Source: Candidatus Omnitrophota bacterium (GTDB lineage Bacteria; CAIJMQ01). From it: 64,000 nucleotides of DNA. The notes beneath the pieces were generated by a model. It made no database searches. It saw nothing but the letters and a program-made list of their open reading frames with translations, and was not told the origin of the DNA. Positions 8,470 to 50,493 of this stretch are shown in pieces (positions within the stretch are counted from its first letter, which is position 1; the number at the start of each line of letters is the position of its first letter). The position numbers and the translations under genes were made by a program. Where the stretch lies: the NCBI GenBank assembly GCA_018812925.1, contig JAHJCU010000004.1, positions 244,289 through 308,288 of the forward strand. The letters run 5' to 3'.

Positions 8470-9339
8470 ATGGTTTGTCTTAAATGCGGTCGATATAATC
8501 TCAATTTAGAATCAAAAACCCATCTGATGGGGATTTTAAACATAACACCTGATTCGTTCTATGACGGCGGAAAATATTCATCTCTATCACAAACAGAAAA
8601 AAGAGCAATACAGATAGAAGAAGACGGAGCGGATATAATCGATATAGGAGGAGTTTCCACGCGCCCCGGTTCACAACCTCCCAGCGAAGAAGAAGAAACA
8701 AAAAGAGTCATCCCCTTAATCAAAAAAATAATCAAAAAAATAAATATTCCAATCTCTATCGATACTTATCGCGCAGAAGTGGCAAGAAAAGCGCTGGATT
8801 TAGGCGTAAGTATTGTGAACGATGTTACTGCTCTTAACGGTGATAAAAAAATGGTTGAAGTTGTTGCCGAATATAATGTCCCAATTATTTTAATGCACAT
8901 GAAAGGGGAACCTTGCAAGATGCAGAAAAATCCTTACTACAAAAATGTAATACAAGAAATAAGTCAATTTTTAAAAGAAAGAATTGATTTTTCTCTTGCG
9001 CGTGGCATAAAGAAAGAAAACATACTCATTGACCCCGGGATAGGATTTGGGAAAAGATTAGAAGATAATCTTGAAATCATAAGCAAGTTAAAAGAATTCG
9101 GCGGGTTAGGAAAACCTATCGTCCTTGGAGTTTCAAGGAAATCTTTTATAGGCAAGGTGCTTGATTTGCCGATAGAAGAACGACTTTTGGGCACTGCCGC
9201 ATCTGTAACAGCGGCAATTATGAACGGAGCCAATATTTTAAGAGTTCACGACATAGCCGAAATGTCTCAGGTAATCAAAATGACAGATGTGATACTACGA
9301 CCAAAGACTAAAGACTGTAGACCTAAGACTAGCAACTAA
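8470..9339 (+). CDS. folP: Dihydropteroate synthase
   Basis: GILNITPDSFYDGG, DIGG.STRPG pterin-binding motifs. Conserved ftsH-folP synteny. Confidence 0.9.
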   Translation: MVCLKCGRYNLNLESKTHLMGILNITPDSFYDGGKYSSLSQTEKRAIQIEEDGADIIDIGGVSTRPGSQPPSEEEETKRVIPLIKKIIKKINIPISIDTYRAEVARKALDLGVSIVNDVTALNGDKKMVEVVAEYNVPIILMHMKGEPCKMQKNPYYKNVIQEISQFLKERIDFSLARGIKKENILIDPGIGFGKRLEDNLEIISKLKEFGGLGKPIVLGVSRKSFIGKVLDLPIEERLLGTAASVTAAIMNGANILRVHDIAEMSQVIKMTDVILRPKTKDCRPKTSN

Positions 9340-40039: not shown

Positions 40040-40192
40040 TTATTTTAACAAGACAATGCCGCTTACCACAGAAAATATTATTACTGCCCAATTATAAATG
40101 GTCCAAAAGGCATCCTTGTTAATAATCATACCCGCAATCGTAGCAACCGCTAAAACCAACAGCAACCCGCCAATAATCTTATTCTTTTTCAT
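40040..40192 (-). CDS. Small membrane peptide (50 aa), first gene of the deaminase/hydrolase string
   Basis: RBS GGAGGT 8 nt upstream. MKKNKIIGGLLLVLAVATIAGMIINKDAFWTIYNWAVIIFSVVSGIVLLK. Below the ORF-track length cut-off. Confidence 0.4.
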   Translation of the reverse strand: MKKNKIIGGLLLVLAVATIAGMIINKDAFWTIYNWAVIIFSVVSGIVLLK

Positions 40193-40202
40193 ATTAACCT
40201 CC

Positions 40203-40252
40203 ATTCAAGATTTGGGACTGTTTTTTCAATAATGTGTCATTGCAAGACCTGC
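40203..40252. repeat. Short form of the island punctuation element: aagatttgggactgtttttt + gtgtcattgcaagacc
   Basis: Both terminal motifs of the composite element adjacent to each other. Copies of each motif at 40625, 42010, 42735 and 42837, 47690. Confidence 0.7.
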
Positions 40253-40255
40253 TTC

Positions 40256-40588
40256 TTACCTCCCTCGTGAATTGTTGGACATATCTCTGTTGTTTATCTT
40301 AAGTATCGAAAACTTGCTTTCTAAATACTTGTCAAACGGAACCCCACTAAGCACTGCTCCAATGATCCAGCCATATAGAGTACCTGTGAAACCATATTTC
40401 ATGCCACCAAGATACGCCAAGGGAATGCCCGCAAAACAACACCCTAAAAACAACAGTGGCCAGTAGAACCAGTGATGTTTGCCAATAAGCCCTGTATGGC
40501 AAAGTGGACACGGAAATCGTCCGAAAGGAGCCTTGACATACCGCTTCCATGTCAACAGAAAATCACCATTGCATTGTGGGCATTTCAT
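40256..40588 (-). CDS. Zinc-ribbon (CPQC...CPLC) membrane protein, 110 aa
   Basis: N-terminal two CxxC pairs, then 2 TM helices. Confidence 0.45.
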   Translation of the reverse strand: MKCPQCNGDFLLTWKRYVKAPFGRFPCPLCHTGLIGKHHWFYWPLLFLGCCFAGIPLAYLGGMKYGFTGTLYGWIIGAVLSGVPFDKYLESKFSILKINNRDMSNNSRGR

Positions 40589-40624
40589 ACAATAATCCTC
40601 TTTTCAATTACACAAAATCCTTTT

Positions 40625-40644
40625 TAAGATTTGGGACTGTTTTT
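40625..40644 (-). promoter_or_regulatory. Conserved promoter-proximal motif AAAAACAGTCCCAAATCTTA 37 nt upstream of the start codon
   Basis: The same 20-mer sits 15-87 nt upstream of four consecutive transcription-unit starts (40207, 40625, 42010, 42735). Confidence 0.45.
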
Positions 40645-40675
40645 ATTTTAAAAGGCACCATCCCTTTTATTTTAT

Positions 40676-41923
40676 TTAAATAAAAAATAATGGCATAAAT
40701 AAGACGTTCCTTTTTTTGTCAAAAGCAAAATAATTTTCGGAAAGAACAACCATTTTATTCGGCGAATACTTTTCTTTAAAACTAAGTAAAGCTCTGCCGG
40801 TTTTATTGGAATGTAAAGTCGATTTTACCTCTACAGCAGTAATTTGCCCGCGTCTTTCCAATATAAAATCAATTTCCGCATTGGATTTTGTCCGCCAGTA
40901 ATTAATATTATCTTCTTCTTTTAATAATTGGCTCGCTACAAAATTCTCATTTAACTTACCTCTGTCAGTCCTTTGAACTAACTCCTGAAAATTATCTATC
41001 GCAACGTTTCGAAATCCGTTGTCACAAAAATAGACCTTAGGCGATTTGGCAATTTCAACCCTTTTATTTCTATAAAAAGGCATAACTTTTTTTATCAGAA
41101 AGGTCTTTTCCAAAATATTAATATGTTCCAATAGCTTTTTATAATTAAGAGAAGTAATCTGACTTAATTCATTATATACAACCAAAGAACCAGTCTGCAG
41201 AGCCAACGCTTTTATAAGCTTCTGCAATTCCAATTCTGTGCTTAATTGGAGTATATCTCTTATTTCCCTTAACAGATATATATTGTAGATATTTTTCAAT
41301 ACGGTGATTTTTTCTTCTTTGCCATCGGCAATCGCAACTCTGGGATAACCGCCATATATCACATATTCATAATAATATTTGCTTATTTCCTGTATTACTG
41401 CATCGGATACTAGAGGAGGTGTTTTTCTCTTATCCGCAAAATAATTATCTATTTTTTCTTTAACTTCCAAATAGAGATTTTCATAAAGCGCGGGGTTTCT
41501 AAAACTTAAAAATTCCTTAAAACTAAAAGGATAGAGTTGGAATGTAAAAATTCTGCCTACAAGATATTTAAGCGCTTGATTAGTTAAATCCAAAACAGAA
41601 GAACCGGAAATAATAATTTTTGTCTTATGAGTATCGTAAAGATATTTTAATTTCTGTCCGCCTTCTTTTGCATATTGGAATTCATCTATAAACAGATATT
41701 CGGCACCTTTTACATGCAGGTTATAAAATGTCTTAATATCATCATTAAACAAATTAAGAGTATCTCTGTCTTCAAAATCAATATATTTTGCTTTCTTAAG
41801 CGGTTTTGCTATTTGCTTTAAAAGCGTGGTTTTGCCCGATTGACGAGGACCAATAACCGCAAGAATTTCGGGTTTATTCAAATACGACTTGATTTTGTCC
41901 TCTAATTCCCTTTTGATATACAT
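40676..41923 (-). CDS. AAA+ ATPase with C-terminal DUF4143 (COG1373 family)
   Basis: Walker A GPRQSGKTTLL, Walker B FIDEFQ. About 415 aa, typical of this family. Confidence 0.75.
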   Translation of the reverse strand: MYIKRELEDKIKSYLNKPEILAVIGPRQSGKTTLLKQIAKPLKKAKYIDFEDRDTLNLFNDDIKTFYNLHVKGAEYLFIDEFQYAKEGGQKLKYLYDTHKTKIIISGSSVLDLTNQALKYLVGRIFTFQLYPFSFKEFLSFRNPALYENLYLEVKEKIDNYFADKRKTPPLVSDAVIQEISKYYYEYVIYGGYPRVAIADGKEEKITVLKNIYNIYLLREIRDILQLSTELELQKLIKALALQTGSLVVYNELSQITSLNYKKLLEHINILEKTFLIKKVMPFYRNKRVEIAKSPKVYFCDNGFRNVAIDNFQELVQRTDRGKLNENFVASQLLKEEDNINYWRTKSNAEIDFILERRGQITAVEVKSTLHSNKTGRALLSFKEKYSPNKMVVLSENYFAFDKKRNVLFMPLFFI

Positions 41924-42002
41924 AATTTTACCCCTGCTATTCTTTACTTTTGTTAAATTATAGCAGGTTTATTTTTAATGTCAAGGGATGAATTTCAAAA
42001 GA

Positions 42003-42155
42003 TGAAGAGTTAAGATTTGGGACTGTTTTTCGAAGTCCCCCTATTGGGGGACGAAGCCCCCATCGCCAGTTTTGCGAGCGGAGCGAGTGAAACTATGCAC
42101 TGTCCCCACTGCTAGTTTTGCGGAAGCAAAACTGTGGGGAGGGGTATACCCCTTT
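42003..42155. repeat. Composite element: ttaagatttgggactgttttt + family B hairpin core + ggggaggggtatacccctttttatttc
   Basis: Compare 42735-42858 and 504-606. Confidence 0.75.
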
Positions 42156-42698
42156 TTATTTCTTATCAACAGATTTATAATAAGCATTGGTGATTTTAAT
42201 TTCGTAATGGTCAAATTTGGGAATTGGCGCTTTATCACAGCCACTACAATCTACTACAAAATTCTCTTCCTCGCCAGGACGAAGGGTCCCTCTAATATAT
42301 TCAGAACATTCGTATACAAATTTCCCTTCTTTATCGAATAGTTCAACTTCAATATTAATTGAACCCCATGCATCGCTACCCGTATTAGCAACAACTCCAA
42401 CCACATTGAAGCTGTCTTCTGTTGGGAACCATTCGTGATGAGATTTGATTATCAGTCCTGAATCCTGACTAAAGTCTCTATACGTATAATCAAAACTTTT
42501 CTCAACCTTCTTCCCTATAAAATATATAGCTGTAAACATAATTGCAATGAATAAAAAACCATAAATGAAACCGGAGAGAGGATGATGTATAAAAACTGAA
42601 AACTTTGTCTGCCAATGATGGCAATGCGGACACCTTTTGGCACGACTATCAATCTGCTGATAACAAGACTTGCACTCCTTCATTTGTTTTTCATCCAT
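42156..42698 (-). CDS. Zinc-ribbon (CKSC...CPHC) membrane protein with about 120-aa extracytoplasmic domain, 180 aa
   Basis: Same architecture as 40256-40588 (N-terminal zinc ribbon, then TM) with a larger C-terminal domain. Confidence 0.45.
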   Translation of the reverse strand: MDEKQMKECKSCYQQIDSRAKRCPHCHHWQTKFSVFIHHPLSGFIYGFLFIAIMFTAIYFIGKKVEKSFDYTYRDFSQDSGLIIKSHHEWFPTEDSFNVVGVVANTGSDAWGSINIEVELFDKEGKFVYECSEYIRGTLRPGEEENFVVDCSGCDKAPIPKFDHYEIKITNAYYKSVDKK

Positions 42699-42734
42699 TT
42701 TCCCCTCCTTTTAATTTTTAAGAATATAGCATAG

Positions 42735-42858
42735 ATTAAGATTTGGGACTGTTTTTCGAAGTCCCCCTATTTGGGGGACGAAGCCCCCATCGCTAGTTTT
42801 ACGAGCGGAGCGAGTGAAACTATGGGGGTACTCTTCTGTCATTGCAAAACCTGACCAT
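42735..42858. repeat. Full-length composite element (ttaagatttgggactgttttt - gaagtccccc...gggggac - cccatcgctagttttacg...gaaactatggggg - tgtcattgcaaaacc)
   Basis: Near-identical to 42010-42100 over about 90 nt. Confidence 0.75.
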
Positions 42859-42880
42859 ATTTATTCGGTATTTCTTCATT

Positions 42881-44395
42881 CTAAAATTCGAATTGTTTTC
42901 CTTTTACTGCCGGAGCCCTTTTTAATACTTCTATTGAGTGTGAAGTAGGAATATTTAGTCTTGCGCCATTTAGCACTTCTTCAATTGTAACAATATTTAC
43001 AACAGGATATTTTGTCCCAGTTAAGTTATAAGCATAAGAACCTGCACTTTTAGATTCTGCAACCATAGGTTTTGTTGGAGATTCTAATGTTAAAAATATA
43101 CCCATAACTGCATCTTCCCTTCTCATGGCGCCTTCTAAATCTCTTATATCTCCCGATTTTATTTGTTCACCCGATTTAACCGAGAAAAGTATTTTTTTAT
43201 AAACATCCTTATCTTTTAATCTATCATCTAAAATAAAAGCAGTCCCATCTATACCCTTATCTGCCCCCTTCTTTTCGTTAATTATTGCTCTATTGTTTGT
43301 ATAAGTTAATACAGCCCATTTTTCAAATTCTTTTCTTAATCTGTCATCTTTTTTGTTTGCTAAAGCCCTTGCTGATTCTATGTCTTTAGGTATCCCATCT
43401 AAATGAATTTTATTCAAAACATCTTTACCAAAACTATCTTCAAGCCGTCTTAAAATAACACTGATACTTTGATAGGTAATATCAATTCCAACCCATCTTC
43501 TCTTTAATTTTTCTGCGACTGCAATAGAAGTTCCACATCCACAATAAGCATCTAAAATTATATTCCCTTCATTGCTACTTGCTTTGATTATTTGTTCTAA
43601 TAACTTTTCTGGCTTCTGTGTCGGATAACCTTGTCGTTCATTTCCAATTGGCGATATTTGAGGAATTATCCATACATCATTCATTTTTGTCCCATCTTCA
43701 TTAAAATAAACTTTGTATGGCGTTATATTCTTACCCTTTTTCCAGTAAAATTTCTTTCCATCTTCATCGTGTTCCCACGGATGGTTTTTAAGATTTGTTT
43801 CCTGATATGGTTGAAAAAGTGTATTAAATATAAAATCGTTTGTTTTTGAATATCTGAAAATAATGTCGTGCATTGTTTGAAAATCCCTACTCACGCCAGT
43901 ATATCTTCTATAATGCCAAATGAGTTCATTTCTAAAATCTCCCCCTTTAGGGCAAAATATTGCATCCAAAATTAACTTTAAATAATGACTTGCAGTAGGG
44001 TCGCAATGAAGATAAAAACTTCCTGTTGGTTTTAAAACTCTCTGAATTTCTGCAATTCGCAAAGTCATACTAACTAAATAAGCTAATAAACTTCCCTTAC
44101 CTAAGACTTTTGACAATCCCAATATTAAGTCAATGCTTTGTACAGTAAAAACTCCATTGTAATTTTCTGTTATTTGTTTAAGACCTTCATTCGCTTTATC
44201 GTCCCATTCCCAAGTATCAATAAATGCCTGTGCCTGTGCTTTGTCTTCCTCGCCCTTATTAAGATAAATTTGATTGTAAGTTCTTTTTGAATTAAAGGGA
44301 GGGTCAATGTAGCATAGGTCAATACTATTATCTTTAATCTTTTTCCTGAGTATTTCTAAATTATCGCCATAATAAAGTTTATTTTTGAATTCCAT
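42881..44395 (-). CDS. DNA methyltransferase (beta-class N6-A/N4-C; motif IV DPPF before motif I) fused to C-terminal Mrr-like restriction endonuclease domain
   Basis: CYIDPPFNS (motif IV). ILDAYCGCGTS (motif I). C-terminal GADKGIDGTAFILDD...ILFSVKSGEQIKSGDIRDLEGAM resembles the Mrr_cat GxDxGIDG...QxK core. Confidence 0.75.
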   Translation of the reverse strand: MEFKNKLYYGDNLEILRKKIKDNSIDLCYIDPPFNSKRTYNQIYLNKGEEDKAQAQAFIDTWEWDDKANEGLKQITENYNGVFTVQSIDLILGLSKVLGKGSLLAYLVSMTLRIAEIQRVLKPTGSFYLHCDPTASHYLKLILDAIFCPKGGDFRNELIWHYRRYTGVSRDFQTMHDIIFRYSKTNDFIFNTLFQPYQETNLKNHPWEHDEDGKKFYWKKGKNITPYKVYFNEDGTKMNDVWIIPQISPIGNERQGYPTQKPEKLLEQIIKASSNEGNIILDAYCGCGTSIAVAEKLKRRWVGIDITYQSISVILRRLEDSFGKDVLNKIHLDGIPKDIESARALANKKDDRLRKEFEKWAVLTYTNNRAIINEKKGADKGIDGTAFILDDRLKDKDVYKKILFSVKSGEQIKSGDIRDLEGAMRREDAVMGIFLTLESPTKPMVAESKSAGSYAYNLTGTKYPVVNIVTIEEVLNGARLNIPTSHSIEVLKRAPAVKGKQFEF

Positions 44396-44774
44396 TAATC
44401 CCTCCTTTTCTGTCCTTTAATTTTATTCATTAAATATAGTGAAAGGCTTAAGTAGCAGGTCACAACCATTGTCGGTTATAATTGTCTACACCTTGTTGTA
44501 TTTCGCCTATTAAAATTTCCCTTGGAATCTAAAAATACACCAAAGCAGGGGATAGCGCCTGCTATTCCTTTGCCAAGCCTTTCACAAAACACAACCCTTC
44601 TAGATCCCTTTAACAAGATTATCCAAAGACCCTGAGGAACAATCTCAGGGTTTTCTCTGGGTCTTAATTATGGGAAGGCATGGGTATGCTTCGTTAAAAA
44701 AGCACTTATGTGCTTCATAGCATACCTCCTTTCGGATTGTATCGTTATTAAAACTACTCTTTCAGAGAACGTAT

Positions 44775-44815
44775 GTGTATAATATAATCTCTTAAACAAT
44801 AATAATCAACAAAGA
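44775..44815. repeat. 40-bp direct repeat copy 1 (tgtgtataatataatctcttaaacaataataatcaac). Contains TATAAT.
   Basis: Copy 2 at 47818-47858 immediately upstream of cmk. The two copies bracket the SBP-like/GGDEF module. Confidence 0.7.
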
Positions 44816-44921
44816 TGTTATTGCGAGGTCCGATGACTTTGAAAAGAGCGAGCACCGGACTTCTTCTAACAGTATCTTAAATGCGAAATTTTTACTATAA
44901 TCGCTGATAGGTCTCATAAAA

Positions 44922-46151
44922 ATGGAAAAAGAAATTCTAAAATTCTGGCTGATGCCCAATTCGGGCTTTGAAACCGCAGAGATAATCGATACGGAAATTA
45001 AAGAGTTCACAAAAAAGAATCCATCCGTTGACGTTCAATACGATATTATTCCTTGGGCGCGCGCTTGGGAAAGGATTGTAGAGCACATTAAAAATAAATC
45101 CTGCCCCGATGTTATCCAAATAGGCAATTCGTGGAGCGGAACGCTTTCCATGTTTAAATCTTTTGCCGATATTTCAAAATATAAAAAAGAAATAGTAAAA
45201 AAGAATTTTTTGTTTGATGTTGTCGGCTCTTCTCCGCTGACGAGTAATGACGGCAACAACTGCCTTCCGTGGTTCGCTGATATACGCATTTTATATTATC
45301 GAAAAGATATTTTAGAGAAATACCATATCCCCACAGAATGGCTGGATACATGGGAAGGAATTGTTCGTGTTTGCGAGAAACTAAAAAAAATAGACGAACA
45401 AGGTATATCCCCAATTGGAGTTTCGGGACAATTTGAACAGACACTTGTCCAAGATATTGCCTGCTGGATATGGAACGCGGGCGGAGATTTCTTTTCTAGA
45501 GACAAGGGGAAAATCTTAATAAATCAAAAAGAGTCAATCAACGGCATGGAGTTTTATTTTGACTTAATTAACAACTATTCTTCTAAGGAAGCTCTGTTTA
45601 AAAACTACAGCTATGTCGCAGACAACTTTTTCTTAAGGGATAAATATGCGCTGTATTTCTCGAGTCCGTGGCACCTCGTGACCTTCCTGAGCAAAAACAA
45701 TCCGCATTTCAGTAAAAAGTTGCACAAAAAGATAGGCATAGCTTTATTTCCTAAGAGCACTCTTCAGAGAACTACTTTTCGCGGAGGTAGCGACCTTGCT
45801 ATTATGAGGTCTACTTCTATGTTTAAGGAATCTCTTGAATTGATTAAATTTCTGGTTTCCAGACAGTCCCAGGCAAGATATTGTAAGAATATCGGAATGC
45901 TCCCGTCAAATATGAAAGCTTTTGAATCAATATATATACAAAATACAACTCAGAAGAAAATACTAAAAGAATCCTATAAAATAGGTAGGGGATTCCCTAA
46001 TCATTTATACTGGGGCAGCATGGAAATAATTGTGGCGCGGTCTTTCTCCAAAATAATGAAGAAAATTGCGGAGAACAGATACAACCATAATATTTTAAAG
46101 AAAGAGATTGACTATCTTGCGGAACAGATGGAATACGTAATAAATTTATAA
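44922..46151 (+). CDS. Family-1 extracellular solute-binding protein homologue lacking a signal peptide (cytoplasmic SBP-like)
   Basis: The sequence begins directly with the mature-SBP beta-strand (EILKFWLMPNSG...IQIGNSWSGTL; cf. MalE LVIWINGDKG...FGGYA). No hydrophobic leader. Confidence 0.65.
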   Translation: MEKEILKFWLMPNSGFETAEIIDTEIKEFTKKNPSVDVQYDIIPWARAWERIVEHIKNKSCPDVIQIGNSWSGTLSMFKSFADISKYKKEIVKKNFLFDVVGSSPLTSNDGNNCLPWFADIRILYYRKDILEKYHIPTEWLDTWEGIVRVCEKLKKIDEQGISPIGVSGQFEQTLVQDIACWIWNAGGDFFSRDKGKILINQKESINGMEFYFDLINNYSSKEALFKNYSYVADNFFLRDKYALYFSSPWHLVTFLSKNNPHFSKKLHKKIGIALFPKSTLQRTTFRGGSDLAIMRSTSMFKESLELIKFLVSRQSQARYCKNIGMLPSNMKAFESIYIQNTTQKKILKESYKIGRGFPNHLYWGSMEIIVARSFSKIMKKIAENRYNHNILKKEIDYLAEQMEYVINL

Positions 46152-46160
46152 AAAGTATTC

Positions 46161-47627
46161 ATGATTAAAATAAAGAGAATAAAAGAGATTCTGCGGATTA
46201 ACAGGCACTTGAAAGCATTAAATCGAATCAGCCAGAGTTTCCATTTTCTCAACGATATAAAAATACCATTGAAGATGGTTATAGAAAATATCTTAAAAGA
46301 GATGAAACTTGATGAAACCACAATACTTTTATACAAGAAAGAAAGCAAAGCTCTCTACTCTATTTTATTTGCTACCGAAAGAGGCATTCAAGAAGGAGAA
46401 GAATTTATACTGATAGAGCCAAACGACTTTTTTGCTTCTCTTTTATCTAATGAAACAAAATATAAGTATTTGCCGAAAGAGTTTACCCTCTATATCCCGA
46501 TAAAGTATAGAAATTTGCCTATTGGTATTCTGCGGGCAAGAAACGACACATCAAAAAGACCGATTAATAAGAAATATATCCAACTTCTGGTTGATTACAC
46601 AAATATAATTGCATCAGGGATATATGATGTCAACAGGTCTTCTGAAAATCAGAAGTTTCTAAATAAGTTAGTGGCGTTATCAAACATCACTATATCAGCC
46701 ATCAGCACTCTGGAGAAAAAAAGAATATTGGGCATTATTTTAAAAGATATTGTTATGAGTCTCGGATTTGACAGGGTAAAACTTTATCTTATGAATGACA
46801 AAGGGGACTCATTAAACGGAGTTATGTCATTTGATATAAGGGGAAGAATAAAAATCATAAAAAATGAGAAATATCCTATCGGCAAGGGAACAAACAGGTT
46901 TTATAACGAGTTAATTGCGCGGCAAAAAAGAATGTTTAAATTAAATAAAGATATTTTTGGGCTAGTTAAAGTTTTCCCTATGAAAGTTAAAAACCAGATT
47001 ATTGGATTTATGGAAGTGGACAATATTTTCAGTCGTCAGATTATCAGCAAGGAAGACATAGATCATCTTAAATTATTCATCAATCAGACGAGCATTGCAA
47101 TAGAAAACGCCCGCCTTTACAACAGGGTAACGGAACTTTCAATAAAAGATGAACTTTCGGGTCTTTATAATGCCCGCCATTTCTATCAGCAATTAGAAAA
47201 TGAACTGGCAAGGATAGAAAGATACCAAAACCCTCTTGCTATAATTATGATAGATATCGACTACTTCAAAAAATACAACGATAATTACGGACATCTGACA
47301 GGCGACAATATTATAAGGGATATCGGTGAAATAATTTCCAACAGCGTGCGAACAATTGATATCCCGGCGCGTTACGGCGGGGACGAATTCATAGTACTAT
47401 TAGTTAACTGTTCGCTTGACCAGGCGGTTAAAGTCGCCCAAAGAATTAAAAGGGGAGTTGACAATAGCAATTTTACGTTTAAAGGAAAAAAATTAAAGAT
47501 TACAGTAAGTATGGGAGTAGCAGTCCATCCCCCCAGAAAAATATCAGGTAAGGAACTTGTGAAATTAGCAGACAGTTCTCTTTATAAAGCAAAACAGGCA
47601 GGAAGAAACAAAATCTACCCGAGTTAG
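46161..47627 (+). CDS. Diguanylate cyclase (tandem GAF-like N-terminal region + GGDEF), cytoplasmic
   Basis: RYGGDEF active site, IMIDIDYFKKYND. No TM segments. 9-nt gap from the SBP-like gene. Confidence 0.85.
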   Translation: MIKIKRIKEILRINRHLKALNRISQSFHFLNDIKIPLKMVIENILKEMKLDETTILLYKKESKALYSILFATERGIQEGEEFILIEPNDFFASLLSNETKYKYLPKEFTLYIPIKYRNLPIGILRARNDTSKRPINKKYIQLLVDYTNIIASGIYDVNRSSENQKFLNKLVALSNITISAISTLEKKRILGIILKDIVMSLGFDRVKLYLMNDKGDSLNGVMSFDIRGRIKIIKNEKYPIGKGTNRFYNELIARQKRMFKLNKDIFGLVKVFPMKVKNQIIGFMEVDNIFSRQIISKEDIDHLKLFINQTSIAIENARLYNRVTELSIKDELSGLYNARHFYQQLENELARIERYQNPLAIIMIDIDYFKKYNDNYGHLTGDNIIRDIGEIISNSVRTIDIPARYGGDEFIVLLVNCSLDQAVKVAQRIKRGVDNSNFTFKGKKLKITVSMGVAVHPPRKISGKELVKLADSSLYKAKQAGRNKIYPS

Positions 47628-47639
47628 AAATTCCACAAA

Positions 47640-47760
47640 AGCCCCCATTACCAGTCTCGCCATTATATCTTTGGTAGACTGTGGGGGAGTGTCATTGCAA
47701 GACCCGAAGTCCCCATTGCCAGTTTTGCGAACGCAAAACTATGGGGATGACCCCATTTTT
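47640..47760. repeat. Family B-type hairpin element ending in terminator-like stem (ccccattgccagttttgcgaacgcaaaactatgggg) + ATTTTT
   Basis: Shares gtgtcattgcaagaccc and cagttttgcg...gcaaaactatgggg with the island elements. Confidence 0.65.
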
Positions 47761-47817
47761 AGGCTATTTCTTATCGCCATTTTTTAGGTTCTCATATCCA
47801 ACAACTATACGGCAATT

Positions 47818-47858
47818 TTCCTGTATAATATAGCCTCTTAAACAATAATAATCAACTA
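47818..47858. repeat. 40-bp direct repeat copy 2 (tgtataatatagcctcttaaacaataataatcaac). Probable cmk promoter/leader.
   Basis: See 44775-44815. Confidence 0.7.
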
Positions 47859-47867
47859 AGGAGAGCA

Positions 47868-48536
47868 ATGAAAAAGAACACTATTATCACGATTGACGGG
47901 CCTGCTGGAGCGGGAAAGACAACTATTGCAAAAGAGGTTGCAAAACGCTTAGGATTTTTATATTTAGATACGGGAGCGATGTATAGGGCGCTCACTTTGA
48001 AGGCGCTAACAGAAGGTATAACGGTTGAAGAGGAAGAGAAACTTGTGGAAATGGTGAAGGAAACTATTTTAATAGCGAAGAAAGATGATAAGAAGGGAAT
48101 GAGGATATGGGTGGACGGAGAAGAAGTGACTGACAAGATACGAACCGAAGAGGTAACGAATAACATCTGGTGGGTGTGTAGAGTAAAAGATGTGCGGAAG
48201 AAGATGAAGAAGCTTCAGAGGGAAATCGGTTCAAGTGGCGGAATTGTTGTGGAAGGCAGAGATATCGGCACGGTTGTATTCCCCAAGGCACCTTTCAAAT
48301 TTTATCTGGATGCTTCTATTGATGAGCGGGCAAAAAGAAGATGGCTTGAACAAACTAATAAAGGAATACAAAGCGACCTTGAAAAAATTAAGCAGGATAT
48401 AAAAGAAAGAGATAATAAAGATTTCACAAGAGAAATTGCGCCCTTAAAAAAAGCAGAAGATGCTATTTCGGTGGATACGACGGGGCTCTCTATCGAAGAT
48501 GTAGTAGGGAAAATTATCGAGCAAGTAAGTCAATGA
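47868..48536 (+). CDS. cmk: Cytidylate kinase
   Basis: ITIDGPAGAGKTT P-loop and overall Cmk pattern. Confidence 0.9.
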   Translation: MKKNTIITIDGPAGAGKTTIAKEVAKRLGFLYLDTGAMYRALTLKALTEGITVEEEEKLVEMVKETILIAKKDDKKGMRIWVDGEEVTDKIRTEEVTNNIWWVCRVKDVRKKMKKLQREIGSSGGIVVEGRDIGTVVFPKAPFKFYLDASIDERAKRRWLEQTNKGIQSDLEKIKQDIKERDNKDFTREIAPLKKAEDAISVDTTGLSIEDVVGKIIEQVSQ

Positions 48537-48639: not shown

Positions 48640-50022
48640 ATGTTAAATAAATCTGATACTATCGCCGCTATCTCCACCCCTCTCGGCGAGGGCGGAATCG
48701 GTATCGTCAGATTATCGGGGAAGAAGGCGCTGACAATTGCGGATAAGTTATTTAAAGGCAGAAACGGCGCCACCCCTTCAAAACTTCCTTCATATACTAT
48801 TCATTACGGTCATATCATAAGAAACAAAGAAATCTTAGATGAGGTTATCCTCTCTATTATGAGAAAGCCGAAGAGTTATACCAGAGAGGATGTTGTTGAG
48901 ATAAATTGTCACGGGGGAATACTTCCACTTAGAAAAACGCTTGAAGCAGTCCTTGAATGCGGGGCGAGGTTGGCTGAACCGGGTGAATTTACCAAGAGGG
49001 CATTTTTAAACGGAAGGATAGATCTAACTCAAGCCGAAGCGGTTATAAATATCGTTGAAGCGAAAACAGAACTTGCGCTTAAGTCGGCAATATCGCAATT
49101 AAAAGGCGCATTTTCTAAAAAGGTACAAGAACTTAAAGACGAAACTTTAGAATTATTAACTTTGTTCGAAGCTGAATTGGATTTTCCCGAAGAGGATATT
49201 GAAAAAACAAAACGGAACAAACTAATAGAGAGGATTAAACGGATAACATCCGAAACTGATAAATTGTTAAGACAAAGCAGGGAAGGTGAAATTCTGCGTG
49301 ACGGCTTGTTGGTGCTTTTAATCGGCAAAGCAAATGTCGGCAAATCCACTTTCTTAAACCGCTTGGTAGGAAAAGAACGGGCAATAGTCACACATATACC
49401 AGGCACTACGCGGGATATTATTGAGGAATGGATTAATATCGAAGGCATACCCGTAAAAATAGTTGATACTGCAGGATTTAAAAAAATAGAAAATATAATT
49501 GATAAAAAGGCGCAAGAGAAAGTTGAAGAAAAACTGGCAGATGCAAACCTTGTTCTGTTTATGGTTGACGGAACAAAATCGTTATCAAGCCAAGATAAAG
49601 AAATTGCAAAGATTATAAAAGATAAAAAGATGCTGTGTCTGATAAATAAAGTTGACCTACCTGAAAAGATATCTAAAAATAAGCTCAAAAGTTTAATAGG
49701 CAATAAGAAGGTTCTTGAAATATCGGCGCTGAAAGGAAAAGGCATTAATGCGATTAAGAAGTTTATAAGGGATAGCGTGTTTGCAGGCGGGGTGTCAGCC
49801 GGCGAAAGCACTATTATGGTAAACGCCAGAAGCAGAGAATCTTTGAAAGACGCATATAACGGACTTCTTAAGGGTTTTGATGCGATAACAGAAGGTTTAA
49901 GTGAAGAATTTATTGCTGTTGACTTGAAAGAATCGCTGAATTCGTTTAAAAAGATTTTAGGCGAAACACTGGAAGAAGATATACTGGACAGAATTTTTCA
50001 AAAGTTTTGTATAGGAAAATAA
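48640..50022 (+). CDS. mnmE: tRNA modification GTPase MnmE (TrmE)
   Basis: G-domain GKANVGKST. C-terminal CIGK tetrapeptide. N-terminal THF-binding domain. Confidence 0.9.
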   Translation: MLNKSDTIAAISTPLGEGGIGIVRLSGKKALTIADKLFKGRNGATPSKLPSYTIHYGHIIRNKEILDEVILSIMRKPKSYTREDVVEINCHGGILPLRKTLEAVLECGARLAEPGEFTKRAFLNGRIDLTQAEAVINIVEAKTELALKSAISQLKGAFSKKVQELKDETLELLTLFEAELDFPEEDIEKTKRNKLIERIKRITSETDKLLRQSREGEILRDGLLVLLIGKANVGKSTFLNRLVGKERAIVTHIPGTTRDIIEEWINIEGIPVKIVDTAGFKKIENIIDKKAQEKVEEKLADANLVLFMVDGTKSLSSQDKEIAKIIKDKKMLCLINKVDLPEKISKNKLKSLIGNKKVLEISALKGKGINAIKKFIRDSVFAGGVSAGESTIMVNARSRESLKDAYNGLLKGFDAITEGLSEEFIAVDLKESLNSFKKILGETLEEDILDRIFQKFCIGK

Positions 50023-50130: not shown

Positions 50131-50493
50131 ATGAATATTATAAAAAGTTATAAAGATTTAGAAGTATGGAAGAAAGGCATTGAGTTGGTAAAAAAAGTTT
50201 ATCTCATCACAAAGAAATTTCCTAAGGAAGAAGTATATGGATTGACTAATCAGATGCGAAGAGCGGCGGTGTCTATTCCTTCAAATATTGCTGAAGGAAA
50301 AATGAGACAACATACTAATGAATATGTTCAATTCTTGTATATAGCACTTGGTTCTTGTGGGGAGTTAGATACCCAGTTGATTATTTCCGAACAATTGGGA
50401 TATATTTCTAAACAAGATGCATTAAGTTTTGCTGATGAAAGCGATCATATTTCACGAATGATAAGGAATCTCATTAAAACCATAAGAAAATGA
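50131..50493 (+). CDS. Four-helix-bundle protein (TIGR02436; 23S rRNA intervening-sequence protein family)
   Basis: YKDLEVWKK...A..L...I...T..FPKEE.YGLT.Q.RRAA.SI..NIAEG is the family consensus. 120 aa. Confidence 0.85.
   Translation: MNIIKSYKDLEVWKKGIELVKKVYLITKKFPKEEVYGLTNQMRRAAVSIPSNIAEGKMRQHTNEYVQFLYIALGSCGELDTQLIISEQLGYISKQDALSFADESDHISRMIRNLIKTIRK

Follow-up and report, generated by a model that had tools for sequence, protein, structure and literature searches.

Introduction

The solute-binding proteins (SBPs) belonging to NspS-MbaA in Vibrio cholerae and to ScrB-ScrC are periplasmic and act on membrane receptors of the GGDEF-EAL type, which link them to signalling by cyclic di-GMP (c-di-GMP) (PMC8050422). 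Reviews define SBPs as extracytosolic proteins, and ca. 1% of the proteins that match SBP profiles are predicted to be cytosolic, with other functions (PMC9602780). Here we analyse a stretch of 64,000 nucleotides from a Candidatus Omnitrophota bacterium (GenBank assembly GCA_018812925.1, contig JAHJCU010000004.1, positions 244,289 to 308,288; hereafter the window), the sequence of which is identical to a contig of the metagenome-assembled genome (MAG) GCA_018822305.1. Upstream of the cytidylate kinase gene cmk it carries a two-gene operon encoding an SBP-like protein with no leader peptide and a soluble diguanylate cyclase. In full-text literature searches, no account of a soluble cyclase with a cytoplasmic SBP as its partner was retrieved.

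We favour, with moderate confidence, the explanation that the operon encodes a cytoplasmic two-protein sugar sensor, and that the two copies of a short direct repeat around it are paralogous promoters that have served as recombination handles. The operon probably links an internal sugar to c-di-GMP. The initial annotation of the locus had proposed an undescribed ligand-sensing c-di-GMP module, and this proposal is strengthened by the computational comparison below, in which the gene pair is conserved at 15 of 15 loci. It had also read the locus as a 3-kb insertion that captured or duplicated the cmk leader. This part has to be given up, as the same promoter/leader already stands 5' of the SBP operon in two relatives.

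A leaderless SBP-like protein and its partner cyclase

The first gene of the operon (for the coordinates of all features see Table 1) encodes a protein that matches the Pfam families SBP_bac_8 (E = 3e-23) and SBP_bac_1 (E = 1e-20) with scores that place it in these families (83.3 and 74.9 bits, where the cut-offs are 27 and 26). Its AlphaFold2 model (predicted local distance difference test, pLDDT, 88.4; predicted template modelling score, pTM, 0.89) has the two-lobe type II binding-protein fold. A hidden leader or signal peptide is excluded, since a TAA lies in frame at 44898-44900 and each of the three upstream frames contains stops; the protein also contains no hydrophobic segment of transmembrane (TM) grade, the maximum Kyte-Doolittle hydropathy over 19 residues being 0.64. 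Its 71 homologues are of two sorts: leaderless proteins of ca. 410 residues, including one from Omnitrophica WOR_2 SM23_29, and lipobox-bearing Firmicutes proteins of ca. 460 residues. The homologues P0001-P0037 start 3-12 residues from the first beta-strand. A profile search retrieved 836 family representatives at E <= 1e-30, and 84 of the 145 newly fetched best representatives have no N-terminal hydrophobic segment. With neither a leader nor a TM segment, and with this state conserved, the predicted protein is shown to be cytoplasmic. It also lacks the marks of an ABC-importer receptor, since the upstream stops and the hydropathy leave no signal peptide or lipobox and no permease gene is found in this region of the window.

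The second gene begins 9 nt past the SBP stop codon and encodes a protein with a GGDEF domain (E = 7e-48; 163 bits for PF00990 and 186 bits for TIGR00254). The motif RYGGDEF is found at residues 404-410 (GGDEF at 406-410) and the I-site RTID at residues 397-400; across the partner-cyclase family, GG(D/E)EF and the RxxD I-site are invariant. From the intact GGDEF and RxxD motifs the enzyme is predicted to be catalytically competent and feedback-inhibitable. An hhalign comparison finds homology between its two N-terminal domains (probability 99.5%, E = 1e-22), which identifies the N-terminal half, by alignment, as a tandem duplication. The GAF_3 score of 25.1 bits lies slightly below the gathering cut-off of 27, and homologous cyclases carry matches to GAF, GAF_2 and GAF_3. 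In the AlphaFold2 model (pLDDT 85.6) two alpha/beta GAF-like domains, preceded by a helix, are joined to each other and to the GGDEF domain by long helices. By fold, the full-length protein matches IsPadC and Dcsbis best, and the SiaD-SiaC complex is also among the matches. The cyclase contains no TM segment (maximum hydropathy 1.29) and neither a periplasmic nor an EAL domain. The partner cyclases, which include proteins from Elusimicrobia MAGs, form a discrete family with scores of 297-400 bits, followed by at most 112 bits for generic GAF proteins. A single-sequence search with the cyclase N-terminus gave only 5 matches, and a profile was needed to retrieve the family; judged from these searches, the tandem GAF domains of the N-terminus form a family of their own that evolves fast. 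PADLOC and NCBIfam yielded no specific family for the SBP-like protein or the cyclase. The leaderless SBP homologue and the TM-less tandem-GAF cyclase described in the initial annotation are thus both borne out.

Conservation of the gene pair

A metagenome profile scan added 80 loci, and the loci were analysed with scripted searches for open reading frames (ORFs) and by hidden Markov models (HMMs). In a leaderless clade characterized by the motif WxMPNxG, the SBP gene is followed by a cyclase gene in every locus with at least 1.4 kb of downstream sequence (15/15), and the cyclase N-terminus is visible in three more loci on short contigs. In these module loci the cyclase start lies -4 to +269 nt from the SBP stop, and the cyclase N-termini are homologous to that of the window, at 29-37% identity to the window for the paired loci and a GC content of 35-58%. 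By contrast, none of the 36 secreted homologues has a cyclase partner. An ABC permease lies within 5 kb at 26 of these 36 secreted loci but at only 2 of the 18 module loci; linkage to a MalF/G-type permease over the same distance is absent from 16 of the 18. The pairwise distances of SBP and cyclase correlate with r = 0.99 (mirror-tree), which suggests that the two genes are inherited as a unit. By comparison of these loci, the pairing recurs in many uncultured bacteria, and the SBP-cyclase pair is well supported as a conserved cytoplasmic module.

Members of the SBP subfamily are also fused to signalling outputs, in P0324, P0246 and P0267. The metagenomic protein P0324 (808 aa) is a leaderless SBP-GAF-HisKA-HATPase fusion. 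Hydrophobic peaks occur in it only within the SBP and GAF folds and barely exceed the threshold, and the protein appears from its sequence to be cytoplasmic. With this architecture, an SBP domain takes the place of the sensor and a GAF transmitter follows it. Other fusions combine a secreted SBP and TM segments with a histidine kinase or SpoIIE phosphatase at the C-terminus; P0246 has a weak dCache-like match in addition. It appears that the SBP module was drawn into signalling on repeated occasions. In L028 and in the contig of P0015 (Joint Genome Institute, 27.6 kb, gene table), between two and four leaderless SBP paralogues stand in tandem, and neither a cyclase nor a transporter lies near them.

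Likely ligand

The nearest relatives of the SBP-like protein in the PDB are CbpB, which binds cellodextrins (E = 1e-52), betaGlyBP of T. thermophilus (E = 1e-42) and the sophoro-oligosaccharide binder Lin1841. The structure comparison that the initial annotation had suggested for finding the ligand class leads to the same proteins, the AlphaFold2 model being nearest to CbpB and betaGlyBP with template modelling scores of 0.86-0.91. The stacking residues of CbpB are W90 and W296 (PMC9601137). They align with W45 and W250 of the window protein, while W41, W67 and E117 of betaGlyBP align with its W45, W71 and D120. W45 and W71 are invariant in the family, and D120 is found in 29 of 30 members.

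Three independent loci, as far as their gene annotation shows, embed the module in sugar clusters. The module lies between GH35/42 and GH94 plus GH2_C in L004; it follows genes for a secreted SBP and two permeases and precedes GH2 and GH94 in L025; and it stands between genes for a secreted SBP and a permease and a GalT-like gene in L027. Homology, pocket residues and sugar-gene neighbourhoods point to a beta-glucoside as the ligand class, and our best guess is a beta-linked gluco-oligosaccharide of the cellobiose/cellodextrin/laminaribiose/sophorose class. FSU_1047 of F. succinogenes, an SBP 31% identical to CbpB for which no signal peptide is listed (PMC6851124), might be a cultured example.

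The same data bear on whether the SBP serves the cyclase at all. It could be a sugar-binding or sequestering protein, or an effector or target of c-di-GMP, with a cyclase that senses through its GAF domains and two genes that are merely co-expressed. GAF domains are bona fide small-molecule sensors, and leaderless paralogues without a cyclase exist, sometimes in tandem arrays. Mere co-expression fits poorly, however, with the strict adjacency of the two genes, often with overlapping or near-abutting stop and start codons, across very divergent genomes; nor would it explain why the SBP domain holds the sensor position in the P0324 fusion or why the sugar-stacking Trp residues are kept. We regard this alternative as unlikely.

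Origin of the flanking repeats

The direct repeats bracket the SBP-like gene, the cyclase gene and a hairpin/terminator block. After extension of the core they are 39 nt long, with 36/39 positions identical (92%). The initial annotation had given their sequence exactly, with the second copy displaced by ca. 4 nt. The 35-mer core pattern TGTATAATATANNCTCTTAAACAATAATAATCAAC, which has two free positions, finds exactly two matches in the window, at 44776-44810 and 47822-47856, where shuffled sequences lead one to expect 0. The sequence TGTATAATATA is restricted to the same two sites of the 64-kb window, and no third copy of the leader half CTCTTAAACAATAATAATCAAC, or of the other half of the repeat, was found there with up to 4 mismatches. 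A generic promoter, repeated upstream of many genes, is not what this distribution describes. Each repeat opens with a TATAAT box, and copy 2 ends 7 nt 5' of the cmk ATG (47868), running into the cmk Shine-Dalgarno sequence AAGGAG, so that its position directly upstream of cmk is confirmed. A sigma-70 scan gave 14 sites against 13.1 expected; because these counts are at chance level, the TATAAT box and its conservation are the sole basis for assigning a promoter function to the repeats.

The SBP leader (ca. 110 nt) is better conserved than the genes that it precedes, with ca. 91% identity to the related locus L015 against ca. 85% for coding DNA. A 21-codon upstream ORF (uORF; MLLRGPMTLKRASTGLLLTVS, then a stop) begins directly after copy 1, and is open in L012 and L015 as well, with mixed synonymous and non-synonymous changes. 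A riboswitch in this leader was considered and dropped: its fold (z = -1.3) is not significant, and it has no Rfam match. Rfam covariance models gave no match at the gathering threshold in the window, nor at E <= 1 in 44350-44960.

Relatives of the locus were gathered through similarity of cmk or the SBP and compared by alignment and blastn. L008 (cmk 78% identical to that of the window) has a minus-strand deaminase gene, unrelated genes and then TTTTCC-TGTATAATATAAGCTCTTAAACAAC...AAGGAG-cmk, with neither SBP nor cyclase; the cassette is thus absent from its cmk locus, the comparison that the initial annotation had called for. L009 (cmk 77% identical) has the same promoter/leader directly 5' of cmk. 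In L012 (SBP 96% identical) a minus-strand deaminase gene is followed by the promoter/leader with the SBP and cyclase genes, then by four minus-strand genes and a non-coding X region of 370 nt, and last by the second promoter/leader and cmk, which puts 4.5 kb and four genes between the SBP operon and cmk. L015 (SBP 79% identical) consists of a deaminase remnant, the promoter/leader and the SBP gene. The promoter/leader therefore precedes the SBP operon in three lineages (window, L012 and L015) and cmk in five loci (window, L008, L009, L012 and L013), and adjacency of cmk and SBP is not required for it. Because it stands 5' of the SBP operon in both L012 and L015, its duplication is older than these lineages.

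Alignment with blastn bears on how the two copies came to differ in their surroundings. The counterpart of window 44403-44809 is the region upstream of cmk in L012 (95%), and from 44808 onward the window matches the SBP leader and genes of L012 (97%); in the comparison with L015, homology sets in at 44777, precisely the 5' edge of the repeat. Flanked upstream as cmk is in L012 and downstream by the SBP leader, copy 1 is best read as a recombinant joint with breakpoints at the repeat edges. Such a hybrid points to homologous recombination between pre-existing paralogous promoters. In L012 both copies read AAAAAGCAAA, a derived form of the AATAATCAAC seen in the window copies, L015 and L009; the three derived substitutions common to the paralogous copies of L012 indicate gene conversion. 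The conserved cassette spans 44776-47687 (2.9 kb), and its homology to L012 stops at 47687. The interval from the deaminase gene to cmk holds different cargo in each genome and is, on this comparison, a variable island. On the same alignments, one reciprocal exchange does not suffice to link the arrangements of the window and L012, and neither does one deletion. The comparative data thus make the repeats two old paralogous copies of one promoter/leader, not an insertion scar; ordinary in itself, the case neatly combines promoter duplication with gene conversion and recombination.

A simple recent insertion, in which a 3-kb mobile cassette entered the cmk leader and the 39-nt repeats are a target duplication or captured leader, is largely refuted by these findings and now seems improbable. 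In L012 and L015 the same promoter/leader lies 5' of the SBP operon in other surroundings, in L012 away from cmk, and copy 1 is flanked upstream by the region that lies upstream of cmk in L012, the mark of a homologous-recombination joint. Profile scans found no transposase, integrase or recombinase gene near the locus. Typical target duplications are also far shorter than 39 nt. L008 lacks the cassette between its deaminase gene and cmk, the repeats bracket the cassette precisely and it sits in a variable island with candidate defence genes, all of which would suit an insertion; yet the repeat pre-exists at cmk (L008, L009) and at the SBP operon (L012, L015), contrary to what a mobile element with target-site duplication would require.

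The surrounding island

The hairpin element with a terminator that the initial annotation had placed between the repeats is also present. The block at 47642-47760 has a fold z of -4.0 and ends in GGGGAUGACCCCAUUUUU, a terminator-like GGGG-AUGA-CCCC-U5. It is one of a composite hairpin repeat family with the pattern gatttgggactgttttt...ccccctattggggg...ccccatYgccagttttgcg..., whose sites in the window are 42020-42150, 42735-42830, 47640-47760 and ca. 40205-40250, and which occurs outside it in L008 (7780-7880) and L012 (10790-10900). The window hairpin repeats mark block boundaries of the deaminase-cmk island, in the manner of repetitive extragenic palindromes (REP) or miniature inverted-repeat transposable elements (MITE).

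The X region abutting promoter copy 1 is more conserved between the window and L012 (ca. 97%) than the flanking genes (ca. 90%), and has no Rfam match. It contains a terminator-like plus-strand hairpin at ca. 44638-44668, in which L012 has a compensatory C>T / G>A double change. The region is attached to a promoter copy in both genomes, that of the SBP operon in the window and that of cmk in L012. It may be an undescribed small RNA or regulatory element.

The island cargo of the window (40256-44395) resembles a small defence island and is wholly different in L012, where four unknown genes are found, and in L008, which has an FGE-sulfatase-like gene. A gene for a small hydrophobic protein of ca. 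50 aa is repeated at the island edges (window 40040-40195; L008 5400-5550 and 7600-7756; L012 5317-5469). A gene for a 23S rRNA-intervening-sequence protein (four-helix bundle) lies at 50131-50493 in the window and at 14635-15030 in L012, at different positions relative to cmk and mnmE, and is another small mobile-looking gene nearby; its slot between cmk and mnmE in L012 is held in L008 by a 127-aa ORF (8885-9268).

That the SBP-cyclase pair itself serves an anti-phage defence island is very improbable: it does have genes for a PDC-S01-like ATPase and a type II methyltransferase-Mrr fusion nearby, but neither protein of the pair has a PADLOC match, and elsewhere the pair adjoins housekeeping or sugar-utilisation genes. 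Least probable of all is that the SBP-like protein is in fact secreted, through a mis-called start or a non-classical route, and signals from outside, as the 'extracellular' names of its Pfam families might suggest, given the stops in all upstream frames, a leaderless N-terminus conserved in dozens of lineages and a partner cyclase that has no TM or periplasmic domain.

Table 1. Features of the SBP-cyclase locus and the deaminase-cmk island, in window coordinates.
Feature	Position	Strand	Remarks
PDC-S01-type AAA_14/DUF4143 ATPase	40676-41923		Island cargo
FxLYD-domain zinc-ribbon membrane protein	42156-42698		Island cargo
Type II N6/N4 methyltransferase-Mrr-like nuclease fusion	42881-44395		Island cargo
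X region	44403-44775	+	Structured non-coding stretch abutting promoter copy 1; ca. 97% identical to L012 13305-13678; RNA fold z = -4.8
Promoter/leader repeat, copy 1	44776-44814	+	TGTATAAT -10-like box and ca. 25 nt of leader; 5' of SBP operon; putative recombinant joint
SBP-operon leader	44815-44921	+	21-codon uORF at 44815-44880; second TATAAT at 44896-44901; ca. 91% identical to L015
SBP-like protein	44922-46151	+	409 aa; CbpB/betaGlyBP-type sugar-binding fold
Soluble diguanylate cyclase	46161-47627	+	488 aa; helix, GAF-like 1, helix, GAF 2, helix, GGDEF
Hairpin 1	47642-47688	+	3' end of conserved cassette
Hairpin 2 with terminator-like GGGG-AUGA-CCCC-U5	47708-47761	+	Member of repeated element family
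Promoter/leader repeat, copy 2	47822-47860	+	Putative native cmk promoter and 5' untranslated region (UTR) into AAGGAG; orthologous sequence 5' of cmk in L008, L009 and L012
cmk (cytidylate kinase)	47868-48536	+	Followed by mnmE at 48640-50022

Discussion

In the two-protein sugar sensor that we favour, the leaderless SBP would bind an imported or internally made beta-linked gluco-oligosaccharide in the cytoplasm. Its ligand-dependent opening and closing would be passed by protein contact to the tandem GAF domains and helical stalk of the cyclase: either the ligand-bound or the apo SBP would touch the GAF/stalk part, and the output of the cyclase would shift. Synthesis of c-di-GMP by an enzyme with intact GGDEF and RxxD motifs would then track the sugar. 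The native promoter copy would drive cmk and the old duplicate the SBP operon. The two copies would undergo gene conversion and act as recombination handles, which would have shifted the 2.9-kb cassette within the hypervariable deaminase-cmk island until, in this genome, it ended directly upstream of cmk. We infer the ligand, the interaction and the direction of signalling alike.

Several observations weigh against this explanation. Pairing and co-inheritance are no proof of physical interaction, as r = 0.99 fits a shared phylogeny too, and the GAF domains could be the true ligand sensors. Other leaderless subclades have no cyclase, namely L007 and the tandem arrays of L028 and the P0015 contig. 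The ligand may differ from the one proposed, because the equivalent of betaGlyBP W177 is replaced by Q/K in the family and W250, present in the window protein, is shared by only 11/30 family members; there are also no sugar genes near the module in this window. As for the promoters, the second perfect TATAAT (44896-44901) may be the true SBP promoter. The cmk leader of L012 seems to keep a vestige of the SBP leader (AAAGAT..TGCGA), so that duplication followed by differential loss is a further possible history.

A wider generalization can be put forward only tentatively. Stand-alone cytoplasmic SBPs might be intracellular receptors that dock on GAF transmitters, those of cyclases or, when fused, of a histidine kinase, and might give Omnitrophota- and Elusimicrobia-like bacteria a direct cytoplasmic route from beta-glucan oligosaccharides to c-di-GMP, as a signalling mode that has not been described before; a 35-39-nt promoter/5'UTR held alike by gene conversion would imply co-regulation of cmk and the SBP operon.

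If the two-protein sensor is real, sensing through a partner SBP extends into the cytoplasm, whereas the characterized SBP-to-c-di-GMP cases are all periplasmic (PMC8050422, PMC9602780). For uncultured phyla of which little is known, it would also name a concrete sugar input to c-di-GMP that can be tested, and, as both proteins are soluble, ligand binding, complex formation and cyclase biochemistry should be straightforward. The promoter pair offers a clean natural example of a short regulatory sequence that is both a duplicated promoter and a substrate for recombination and gene conversion reshuffling an island.

Among known systems, NspS-MbaA and ScrB-ScrC resemble the window pair in that a transporter-independent protein of SBP fold (NspS belongs to SBP_bac_8) is encoded beside a GGDEF enzyme, for which it is the ligand sensor (PMC8050422). 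In those systems, however, the SBP is periplasmic and its partner a membrane GGDEF-EAL protein with a periplasmic domain, whereas the window pair has no signal peptide or TM segment and combines an SBP of the sugar (CbpB) type with a GGDEF-only tandem-GAF cyclase. The best matches in sequence and structure are CbpB of C. thermocellum and betaGlyBP of T. thermophilus, binding proteins of ABC importers for cellodextrins and beta-glucosides, with which the window protein shares a stacking Trp and an acidic residue. It differs from them in lacking a lipobox or signal peptide, in the loss of the W177 equivalent and in having a cyclase partner instead, and 16/18 module loci have no adjacent permeases or ATPase.

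On the side of the cyclase, SiaC-SiaD of P. aeruginosa sets a precedent: there a cytoplasmic GGDEF enzyme is under the control of a stand-alone protein. SiaC does not have the SBP fold, however, and is itself controlled by phosphorylation, and the sequence relationship of the cyclases is restricted to the GGDEF domain. Dcsbis (PA2771) and IsPadC likewise join sensory domains of the GAF type (GAF/PHY) to GGDEF through a helical stalk, but the tandem GAF pair of the window type is a distinct family and is always paired with an SBP.

Use of the periplasmic-binding-protein fold inside the cell is familiar from LacI- and LysR-type regulators, in which it is fused to DNA-binding domains. The window SBP, in contrast, is full-length and stand-alone and has a separate signalling enzyme, with P0324 as the nearest fused analogue. 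The cytosolic proteins that match SBP profiles (PMC9602780) are a further case in which the binding-protein fold is reused as an intracellular ligand sensor. From these comparisons we infer that the pair extends the known SBP-coupled c-di-GMP signalling to a cytoplasmic sugar-type SBP and a soluble cyclase.

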